Source of the DNA: a virus
Taxonomy: Duplodnaviria > Caudoviricetes
Reading direction: 5' to 3' (one strand)
DNA: 64,000 bases
Virus record (IMG/VR): IMGVR_UViG_645948499_000001
Coordinates: 10,902 to 74,901 of that record
Shown here: one piece after another, positions 60,517-62,048 of the stretch
Numbering within the stretch: the first letter of the stretch is position 1
Layout of the letters: each line of letters opens with the position of its first letter
Notes under the pieces: generated by a model
Told to the model about the DNA's origin: nothing
The model's database searches: none
The model's input: the letters and a program-made list of their open reading frames with translations, nothing else
Position numbers and translations under genes: made by a program

Positions 60517-60714
60517 ATGAGACCAGGAATGATACCCACGGTGTTTCGGCACCTGTATAACATCCGCTTGTACTCTAAATACAATAAAGAAGGTTGCCCT
60601 GGCACTGGCCGTATGTTCGAGAAATTGACTGCTGACTTCAGTTCTATAAGCAGACGGGGTGTATCCTACGATGAGTGGAAGCAACTAGATGCCCATATGG
60701 ATCACATGATATGA
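60517..60714 (+). CDS. KxxKE array member 15
   Basis: KYNKE; DEWKQL. Confidence 0.75.
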   Translation: MRPGMIPTVFRHLYNIRLYSKYNKEGCPGTGRMFEKLTADFSSISRRGVSYDEWKQLDAHMDHMI

Positions 60715-60908
60715 AACCAGAATTAGAAGATGAGTTTCTAAGACATACGTTTAATAGGATCCTCTATAGGAAAGCCTGGAAAGAAGACCTTCCAGGGGCT
60801 ATGTGCATGTACCAGGATCTCGGAGCCACATTCACTAAGCTAAGTAACCAAGGTGTTACCCGCGAGGACTTCGAACTTGGGTGGGCACGCATAGGACGTG
60901 TAGTATGA
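60711..60908 (+). CDS. KxxKE array member 16 (MKPE subfamily)
   Basis: RILYRKAWKE. Confidence 0.8.
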   Translation: MKPELEDEFLRHTFNRILYRKAWKEDLPGAMCMYQDLGATFTKLSNQGVTREDFELGWARIGRVV

Positions 60909-61102
60909 AACCAGAAACGGAAGTTGAAATTCGCAGGTATACTTTTTATCGGATCCTCTACTGGAAAGCCCGTAAAGAGGAACTACCTAGTACCTACCGT
61001 ATGTTCCAAGTTGCCAGTGCTACTTACTTTGAACTGATTGCCCAAGGCTTTTCGGGGGAGAGTATAGAAGATGATCAGAATCTTATAGGACTCATAGTAT
61101 GA
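60905..61102 (+). CDS. KxxKE array member 17 (MKPE subfamily)
   Basis: RILYWKARKE. Confidence 0.8.
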   Translation: MKPETEVEIRRYTFYRILYWKARKEELPSTYRMFQVASATYFELIAQGFSGESIEDDQNLIGLIV

Positions 61103-61296
61103 AACCAGAACTGGAAGCTGAAGTTCGTAGGTACAAGTTCAACCGGATCCTCTACAGGAAAGTCTTGAAGGAAGGACTGCCTGGAAACGTGTGGATGTTT
61201 CGAAACCTCAACGCTACCTTCACTGAGTTGAGTAACCAAGGGGTCACACGCGAAGATACCAACCTAATATGGAATCACATAAGGCAAATAGTATGA
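61099..61296 (+). CDS. KxxKE array member 18 (MKPE subfamily)
   Basis: RILYRKVLKE. Confidence 0.8.
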   Translation: MKPELEAEVRRYKFNRILYRKVLKEGLPGNVWMFRNLNATFTELSNQGVTREDTNLIWNHIRQIV

Positions 61297-61487
61297 TCAT
61301 AGACCCAGCCGCATATGAGGTCGCCTTTCTTTATCTACTGAGTTCCAAGTACTACAAAGAGAAGCAGACAAACAAAGGCGACCTCCACCGAGAAACAGCA
61401 GGCCAGTTGGAGTGACCACTCAATGTCGGGGGTATGACTGTAGGTGCGTGGTCTTGTGTATGGGATCACATAGAGGTAACCGTATGA
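61293..61487 (+). pseudogene. KxxKE array member 19 with in-frame TGA at 61413-61415
   Basis: MIIDPAAYEVAFLYLLSSKYYKE...GQLE*PLNVGGMTVGAWSCVWDHIEVTV; the stop aligns with a Trp in member 21. Confidence 0.75.
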
Positions 61488-61678
61488 ACAAAATAGATTC
61501 TGCGTATAGGTCCGTCTTCCACCTCATCCTGAGGGACAAACTCTTCAAGGAGGACAGGAAGATGGAAGCCATCAAGGCCCAAGACAAAGCCTGGGTTCTC
61601 CAGGGTGGTTTCAGTAAGGGCAACTTCAGTCCTGAAGATTGGCAGAGCATATGGATGAAAGCGGAGGAATCCGTATGA
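61484..61678 (+). CDS. KxxKE array member 20
   Basis: KLFKE; DWQSIW. Confidence 0.78.
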   Translation: MNKIDSAYRSVFHLILRDKLFKEDRKMEAIKAQDKAWVLQGGFSKGNFSPEDWQSIWMKAEESV

Positions 61679-61869
61679 GTGATATAGAGTCTGCGTACCA
61701 AATAGTGTTCCTGTACCTATTAGGTGACAAGTACAAGAAGGAGGCATTAACAGCTGAGGGCACTGCACGTCAGGACAAAGCCTGGGATATGCAGTGGACC
61801 CTACGCACACACAGCACTACCAACATAGGCTGGGTTAAGGTGTGGGCAACGGTGGAGACAAGCGTATGA
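61675..61869 (+). CDS. KxxKE array member 21
   Basis: KYKKE; GWVKVW. Confidence 0.78.
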   Translation: MSDIESAYQIVFLYLLGDKYKKEALTAEGTARQDKAWDMQWTLRTHSTTNIGWVKVWATVETSV

Positions 61870-62048
61870 ATCTGGACCCTACTGCATACAAATGTGTGTA
61901 CAGCTTGGTACTTAGTGATAAGTACTACAAGGAAGAACAACTCTCCCCGGCTAACAAGTTCTTCAAGGCTGGTAGCCAAACCATGGACCAAGATGTTTCC
62001 CATTCACAATGGTTCGACATTTGGGAAGCAGTGGAGACAAACATATGA
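61866..62048 (+). CDS. KxxKE array member 22
   Basis: KYYKE; QWFDIW. Confidence 0.78.
   Translation: MNLDPTAYKCVYSLVLSDKYYKEEQLSPANKFFKAGSQTMDQDVSHSQWFDIWEAVETNI

Follow-up and report, generated by a model that had tools for sequence, protein, structure and literature searches.

Phage LUZ7 carries, upstream of its right terminal repeat, a 'cluster of 29 small genes' (gp87-gp115; Ceyssens 2010, PMC3715699; Putzeys 2022, PMC9163698), whose members are described in the available portions of PMC3715699 as lacking database similarity or recognisable features and as being of unknown function. We analysed a 64,000-nucleotide stretch (the window) of the Caudoviricetes virus record IMGVR_UViG_645948499_000001 in IMG/VR, positions 10,902 to 74,901 of that record. 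Its DNA is 78% identical to KPP21-type Pseudomonas phages (Luzseptimavirus, Schitoviridae; N4-like). On its plus strand at 57797-63284 lies a chain of open reading frames (ORFs) consisting of 28 co-directional small genes in a row, each encoding 57-80 amino acids and numbered here as members 1-28 following an earlier note on this DNA. As far as the accessible parts of the published accounts describe the LUZ7 cluster, the array is like it in genus, in its position directly before the right terminal repeat, in the size and number of its genes and in the long terminal repeats of the genome. It differs in that 28 family genes are counted here against the 29 published, and in that genes published as ORFans are here joined into a single family, for which a motif, a predicted fold and a history of turnover can be given.

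Multigene families under birth-and-death evolution are known near the genome ends of large DNA viruses, among them the multigene families of African swine fever virus and the host-range families of poxviruses. With these the array shares tandem diverged paralogues beside a terminal repeat, whole-gene gain and loss between isolates, and orthologues that are closer than paralogues. It differs from them in being made up of bacteriophage genes for far smaller proteins, and the likeness covers no role in host range or immune evasion. In the gene accordion of poxvirus K3L, near-identical copies arise within few passages and collapse again; the array is like it in that its tandem gene units would change by recombination, whereas its copies are anciently diverged and stable.

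We consider it probable that members 15-22, the subject of the earlier note, are part of one ancient tandem family of 28 genes for three-helix-bundle proteins of about 65 amino acids, shaped by long-term birth-and-death evolution. Three features by which such evolution is recognised were found in the array: common ancestry of the members; orthologues that are closer than paralogues, with no homogenisation; and lineage-specific gene differences together with a stop-bearing gene, member 19. The cluster itself is already known, and the PHROGs database groups part of it, keeping phrog_6063 and phrog_11216 (both of unknown function) as two families next to many small orthologue-only families that are joined here; we class the whole as an unusually large tandem multigene family under birth-and-death evolution. 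The strings 'paralog' and 'duplicat' occur 0 times in PMC3715699, PMC9163698, PMC7845610 and PMC7650795, supplementary tables being outside this scope. A full-text literature search on LUZ7, KPP21 and Luzseptimavirus returned no title or abstract start concerned with the cluster, and one on tandem paralogous small proteins in bacteriophages returned nothing relevant. A preprint (10.64898/2026.06.04.730250) presents LUZ7 only as a Thoeris-sensitive phage and leaves the cluster unmentioned.

Homology, fold and distribution of the family

Profile comparisons support the assignment of the array members as true paralogues. The family phrog_11216 (PHROGs v4) matches members 15-18 and 28 over their full length with E-values of 5.7e-27 to 7.7e-33, and phrog_6063 (also PHROGs v4) matches members 7, 8, 11, 13 and 19-27, with E-values of 4.3e-13 to 7.4e-24 for members 19-24, 26 and 27 and of 5.6e-07 for member 25, whose best family is phrog_37547. 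These two subfamilies are joined by profile-profile comparison with hhalign (probability 96.7%, E 4e-10, 60 columns). Ten window members stand outside the family alignment of 36 sequences; against the family profile they reach hhalign probabilities of 20.6-94.1%, compared with a maximum of 2.0% in 40 shuffled controls. Among them members 5, 9 and 10 exceed 91%, member 14 has a weak link at 75.6% and member 2 stands at 20.6%. In a genome-wide search with a hidden Markov model (HMM) of the family all 28 array ORFs fell within the top 32 matches. The 28 array proteins gave no match above threshold in Pfam, and the 36 aligned members gave nothing below E 0.05 in NCBIfam.

A short motif, K-x-x-[K/R]-[E/A], is present at residues 19-35 in all 28 members, with the final E in 27. 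It is written with mixed synonymous codons (first Lys AAG in 20 and AAA in 8; Glu GAA in 16 and GAG in 11), which places the constraint on the protein and not on the DNA. Small ORFs with a KY-x-KE(GL) motif also occur in the early/middle region in the left part of the genome, outside the window (G000:C1:4668-4838, 4720-4914, 8531-8731 and 8734-8946). One early-region ORF has 20 identical bases in common with member 21 (genome 4721-4740, window 61725-61744), and three adjacent ORFs at genome positions 8950-9519 contain a 'KE/RE-LPG' string like that of members 16-18. We tried the out-of-array ORFs with the KYxKE motif as further family members and rejected them; hhalign matches the motif only (22-56%, 16-30 columns) and they are not counted.

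For member 18, AlphaFold2 run with the 36-sequence alignment predicts a three-helix bundle (helices 3-25, 30-46 and 51-64) with a predicted local distance difference test score (pLDDT) of 91.3 and a predicted template modelling score of 0.73. In the predicted fold the conserved Lys/Lys-Glu motif forms the end of helix 1 and a conserved Trp the start of helix 3. The prediction for member 14, made with a 2-sequence alignment, is of low confidence (pLDDT 61.5) and has helices only at 3-32 and 48-61. A structure search of BFVD gave good matches to family members only, with template modelling (TM) scores of 0.77-0.91. Foldseek with the predicted member 18 fold found 0 matches in the PDB at E ≤ 0.001, and a PDB sequence profile search found 0 at E ≤ 1. 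The best VIA-align Z was 7.7, with none at or above 8, the bar that the tool states for helical bundles (known three-helix families: CsoR/FrmR, the influenza NS1 RNA-binding domain, anti-CRISPRs). The ESM Atlas yielded no usable feature match; its structure rows were below the tool's bar and its own model of member 18 was poor (pLDDT 0.51).

Homologs were retrieved only from these phages, so the family is restricted to Luzseptimavirus as far as the searches see. An HMM search of 1.84 billion representative proteins returned 20 matches, 19 of which are proteins of these same phages, as are all seven of the matches from a word-index search. With member 14 as query, a search of viral contigs found only the KPP21 record and a search of metagenome contigs found no match. 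The remaining HMM match, P0025, is an unrelated-looking Lys/Glu-rich repeat protein of 519 amino acids hit in 4 stretches (E 2.1e-05) through 'L(T/S)..EW.NLFDQAE' repeats similar to the helix-3 motif seen in members 24, 26 and 27; this likeness is probably compositional.

Whole-gene differences between sister genomes

We compared the array with six KPP21-type genomes, KPP21, Ka3, TUMS_P10, PA152, AM.P2 and PJNP053, all of which also carry it (K numbers denote array genes of KPP21). Twenty-three window members (1-15, 17, 19, 21-23 and 25-27) have one positional orthologue each, at 47-98% amino acid identity, while the positional partners of members 24 and 28 have diverged (36% and 40-44%, respectively) and members 16 and 18 both map to the single gene K29 (58% and 54%). 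The tree pairs 14 of its 18 window rows with a KPP21 gene rather than with a neighbour, 11 of them with starred support. When the window is aligned to KPP21 with blastn, the alignment blocks end at gene junctions or close to them. The segment from member 17 to the 5′ part of member 18 is collinear with that from K28 to the 5′ part of K29 (76% identity over 348 nucleotides), leaving member 16 as one extra unit. K30 and K31 (388 nucleotides, two units) lie between the KPP21 orthologues of members 18 and 19 and are missing from the window. Between members 19 and 21 the window has member 20, which is absent from KPP21 and makes for a net excess of 191 nucleotides, exactly one unit; member 28 (197 nucleotides) stands where KPP21 has K40-K42 (600 nucleotides). 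An extra member of 70 amino acids, a difference of 222 nucleotides, is found in Ka3 (L005:6227-6439) and TUMS_P10 (L002, about 6425-6640) and is absent from the other four genomes.

There are thus five insertions or deletions in all, of about 1, 2, 1, 2 and 1 whole genes. Since the differences comprise whole genes with ends at or near junctions, the gene is the unit of gain and loss, and in this respect the earlier note, which had taken the gene itself as the unit of duplication, is borne out. Comparison of the member phylogeny with array position, together with that of the sister genomes, revealed neither a tree unrelated to position nor identical array content. As to annotation, the extra 70-residue gene is unannotated in TUMS_P10, and KPP21, Ka3 and AM.P2 have an intact ORF orthologous to member 8 (L001:5496-5684) that likewise carries no annotation.

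Member 19 has a TGA within its frame at a position that is TAC (Tyr) in all six relatives. Downstream of this stop there are 6 synonymous and 4 non-synonymous differences, and the codons are still conserved. The TGA is present in all contigs from three DNA sequencing runs (three studies, which may include the source of this DNA) and one RNA run, with no other letter there. It looks like a recent nonsense mutation in a member on its way out, unless the stop is read through in its TGA-C context. Stops in this context are leaky.

Within the window, protein identity is highest between members 16 and 18 (63%), with member 17 at 48-49% to both and member 15 at 28-34% to members 16-18; members 19-21 are 34-38% identical to one another and other pairs outside these groups roughly 9-31%. 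The farther apart two members lie in the array, the less similar they tend to be (Spearman -0.11, p 0.026), the association being significant for adjacent members (p 0.0066) and for those within two positions (p 0.00045; 20,000 permutations), and members 23-27 form a positional clade together with their KPP21 partners (92/92). The claim that neighbours resemble each other most holds for seven of the eight members 15-22, whose best paralogue lies at most three positions off, but does not extend to the whole array, where the best paralogue is at most two positions off for only 11 of 28 members. Members 19-22 had also been proposed as a second subfamily. They do share the pattern AY..(V/A)(F/Y)..L..K..KE, with QDKAW in members 20 and 21, but they are not recovered as a clade and fall in a polytomy in the tree.

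Several observations weigh against birth-and-death evolution as the account of this locus. For lack of an outgroup with an array, a gain looks the same as a loss (searches of viral and metagenome contigs returned no further relatives). K30, K31, K40, K42, member 20 and the extra Ka3 gene are not close copies of their neighbours; therefore no recent local duplication has been caught, and the distribution of these genes could equally be accounted for by exchange between phages. The protein tree places member 16 with K29 (89/80), the DNA tree places member 18 with the member 17 clade (89/82), and approximately unbiased tests leave standing all three ways of grouping member 16, member 18 and K29 (p 0.09, 0.145 and 0.165). 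When members 16-18 are removed the link between position and similarity becomes marginal (p 0.051). Member 28 groups with K41 and then with the clade of members 16-18 (85/66); it stands ten genes from these nearest paralogues, which simple duplication of neighbours does not explain. The inclusion of members 1, 2, 4 and 6 is weakly indicated, by low profile scores and the motif. The predicted fold has no informative match and isoelectric points spread from 4.6 to 10.0, and none of the evidence gathered bears on function. A hybrid origin of member 18, with a 5′ third like member 17, a middle like K29 and a 3′ third like member 16, was considered and dropped, as it involved only 2-3 nucleotides per third.

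The strongest of the competing explanations is that the differences in content stem mainly from exchange of cassettes between co-infecting phages at conserved junctions, or from differential loss, with duplication confined to the distant past. No other window member is more than 38% identical to member 20, and by inspection K30, K31, K40, K42 and the gene of Ka3 and TUMS_P10 have diverged from their neighbours; the differences end at or near junctions that carry short shared sequences, and the extra gene is common to Ka3 and TUMS_P10 and missing from four close relatives. However, no donor lineage is known and the family is found only in these phages, and members 16, 17 and 18 are mutual closest relatives standing side by side, as fits local duplication. 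On balance we regard exchange or differential loss as the main source of the differences as unlikely.

Under birth-and-death evolution, in-register exchange between misaligned paralogues would add or remove whole genes while leaving frames and translational coupling intact. Such exchange could take place within one genome, in replication concatemers or between co-infecting relatives, and its products would be intact or hybrid genes. Because it would keep the frames and the chain, the gene would be the unit of change and the spacing would be exact wherever neighbours are equal in length. Turnover is slow: the copies, each of them kept by purifying selection, have diverged to about 20-30% identity, and the known genomes are set apart by no more than a few gene-sized gains or losses and one nonsense mutation.

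Spacing and age of the copies

The evenly spaced genes and the repeated strings reported in the earlier note are real. ATG starts fall at 60517, 60711, 60905, 61099 and 61293, each 194 nucleotides after the last, and then at 61484, 61675 and 61866, each 191 after the last. The string GGATCCTCTA occurs three times in the window (60757, 60951 and 61145), ATGAAACCAGAA four times (60711, 60905, 61099 and 63084, the last being the start of member 28) and AGTAACCAAGG twice (60843 and 61231, in members 16 and 18); none of these counts was reached in any of 100 shuffles. A direct-repeat family of 84 nucleotides is present in three copies at spacings of 194 and 194, the copies being 75-76% identical.

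The spacings of 194 and 191 result from gene length minus the four-nucleotide ATGA overlap (198-4 and 195-4). Members 14-18 are all of 65 amino acids and members 19-21 all of 64; when the 28 lengths were shuffled 100,000 times, a run of five equal lengths such as that of members 14-18 appeared in 38 of the shuffles. Member 19 fits the 191-nucleotide spacing only with read-through of its in-frame TGA, which the earlier note had overlooked. Tandem Repeats Finder, run over 57000-64000, reported no tandem DNA repeat in the array and only two short repeats, both within the terminal repeat; the copies are therefore too diverged for that tool.

Comparison with the orthologues shows that the copies are old and that most duplications predate the split of this phage from the KPP21 species. 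At the DNA level member 16 matches member 18 at 68% identity, each of the two matches K29 no less well (71% for member 16, 69% for member 18), and orthologues are closer still (member 17 and K28 82%, member 15 and K27 78%). At synonymous sites members 16 and 18 differ by a proportion (pS) of 0.77; the median of 27 orthologue pairs is 0.51, and a single one of these pairs exceeds the value for members 16 and 18. Every comparable member is under purifying selection: the ratio of non-synonymous to synonymous rates (dN/dS), computable for 26 pairs of window and KPP21 genes, lies at 0.02-0.55 in every one of them, with about 0.5 for members 2, 8 and 24. Member 14 is near-invariant between phage species while its neighbours are 53-70% identical.

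These ages bear on the suggestion that the array is an active gene accordion, as in poxvirus K3L, whose copy number rapidly expands and contracts in phage populations under selection. The tandem head-to-tail layout, the whole-gene insertions and deletions between relatives and the conserved neighbouring junctions (29 of 40 positions for members 17 and 18, 27 of 40 for members 16 and 18) would all be in keeping with it. There are, however, no near-identical copies, the maximum being 68% in nucleotides and 63% in amino acids; synonymous sites are near saturation; no array was detected by Tandem Repeats Finder; and orthologues correspond one to one across species. Contigs of the three DNA runs showed 0 joints and 0 other letters over 57700-63800, a weak negative in that contigs drop rare variants and the runs may derive from this very DNA. 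We judge an active accordion very unlikely, and the claim of recent or ongoing expansion finds no support in the youngest pair, with its 68% DNA identity and near-saturated synonymous sites, or in orthologues that are closer. One run, X5, contained minor 60-nucleotide bubble contigs with one changed letter at 58213-58303 and 61208-61267, at depths of 9-17 as opposed to about 1750; they represent point variants of low frequency in members 3 and 18, not changes in copy number.

That the periodicity is a by-product of unrelated ORFans of equal length that form no family, as might be supposed from the accessible descriptions of such genes in the literature as ORFans without similarity or recognisable features and from pairwise identities that are mostly about 9-31%, can be given almost no credence in view of the hhalign link between subfamilies (E 4e-10), the motif in 28 of 28 members, HMM matches across the array, shared predicted folds (TM 0.77-0.91) and a run of equal lengths with p 0.0004.

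Genome setting, transcription and possible function

The array is bounded on the left by divergently oriented late genes (55315..57728, minus strand) and on the right by the terminal repeat, which begins 57 bases from the array end and encloses a gene at 63487-63756; the record is classed as having direct terminal repeats (Table 1). Overlaps of four nucleotides, (A/G)TGA, are found at 17 of the 27 array junctions. A Shine-Dalgarno-like 4-mer is present at -16 to -6 for 23 of the 28 starts, and in overlapping junctions it lies inside the last codons of the preceding gene. Each array unit is a self-contained module: its start overlaps the previous stop, and the ribosome-binding site for the gene that follows lies within its last codons. 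The stop/start overlaps, the Shine-Dalgarno sites within upstream genes and the lack of an internal plus-strand terminator-like site are features of translational coupling, which is here predicted from sequence. This one gene family makes up about 7% of the genome of this therapeutic-type Pseudomonas phage.

Table 1 Window coordinates of the array, selected members and flanking features
Feature	Position	Strand	Basis
Whole array, members 1-28	57797..63284	+	ORF chain, overlaps, Shine-Dalgarno-like sites, motif, HMM matches
Terminase large subunit gene	55315..57003	-	ORF; name from annotation of homologous genes in relatives
N4 gp69-like gene	57000..57728	-	ORF; name from annotation of homologous genes in relatives
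Right copy of 660-bp direct terminal repeat	63341..64000	.	first 40 nucleotides of the genome recur at genome position 74242
Member 14, 65 amino acids, most conserved array gene	60317..60514	+	95-98% amino acid identity to six relatives; dN/dS 0.02
Member 15, 65 amino acids, phrog_11216 type	60517..60714	+	PHROG E 1.1e-30; K27 69% amino acid, 78% nucleotide identity; sister pair 99/81
Member 16, 65 amino acids, extra copy relative to KPP21-type genomes	60711..60908	+	collinear blastn blocks leave one extra unit; 63% amino acid, 68% nucleotide identity to member 18; 58% and 71% to K29
Member 17, 65 amino acids	60905..61102	+	K28 orthologue 74% amino acid, 82% nucleotide identity; sister pair 100/98
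Member 18, 65 amino acids, protein with predicted fold	61099..61296	+	AlphaFold2, three helices
Member 19, 64 codons, in-frame TGA at codon 41 (61413-61415)	61293..61487	+	outside the stop 84-88% amino acid identity to K32
Member 20, 64 amino acids, no orthologue in six relatives	61484..61678	+	best tblastn 25-33% or none; 61499-61671 unaligned to KPP21
Member 21, 64 amino acids	61675..61869	+	K33 orthologue 58% amino acid identity; 38% identical to member 20
Member 22, 60 amino acids	61866..62048	+	K34 orthologue 58-61% amino acid identity; sister pair 99/97
Member 28, 66 amino acids, phrog_11216 type, last array gene	63084..63284	+	PHROG E 5.7e-27; 27-33% to members 16-18

No plus-strand terminator-like site was found inside the array, and none before 63774; sigma-70-like sites are fewer than expected (2 against 8.2). 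The best contigs of the RNA run (2415 and 880 nucleotides) cover 60199-63464, and RNA contigs leave 59944-60147 uncovered; such contigs cannot rank expression. In the Nanopore RNA run the summed contig depth is about 23,000 at 57700-57903 and falls stepwise to about 35 by 58720, most of the array standing at about 17-35, and it is about 58,000-87,000 at 63412-63800, in the terminal-repeat gene. As contigs give neither strand nor level, this depth profile is no more than a hint of strong initiation followed by early termination. One RNA contig (depth 24) is missing one base at 63369, in the terminal repeat upstream of the gene at 63487, which may be a Nanopore assembly error. In LUZ7, according to the accessible part of PMC9163698, mid-infection transcripts cover the 29 small ORFans (gp87-gp115), and its authors propose a replication-related role for the cluster.

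Across the array isoelectric points run from 4.6 to 10.0 and net charges from -5 to +6. This wide range argues against one shared role in nucleic-acid binding and fits diversified surfaces on a common scaffold. We tentatively suggest, at somewhat less than even likelihood, that the members are a diversified set of small binders that act in mid-infection, built on one scaffold but differing in their surfaces, so that every member would have its own target among host or defence factors. In the predicted fold the scaffold would include the conserved K-Y-x-K-E end of helix 1 and the Trp in helix 3. A bolder and more doubtful proposal is that the array is to the phage what the terminal multigene families are to large eukaryotic DNA viruses. 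It would be a library of at least 28 diversified three-helix-bundle binders on one conserved scaffold, every one of them neutralising its own host or defence factor of P. aeruginosa, and whole-gene turnover at the self-contained ATGA junctions would retune this library to new hosts. If this were true, the motif-only look-alikes in the early and middle regions would be the older seeds of the family.

As an old and stable array, the locus corrects its reading as an accordion. It provides a clean, well-bounded example in which the stop/start overlap and the embedded ribosome-binding site would make each gene a recombination-safe module. The likely paralogy, the shared scaffold with its invariant lysine-glutamate motif and the very different surfaces favour family-wise deletions and partner screens over gene-by-gene work, and the uneven constraint, with dN/dS from 0.02 in member 14 to about 0.5 in members 2, 8 and 24, may guide which members come first.

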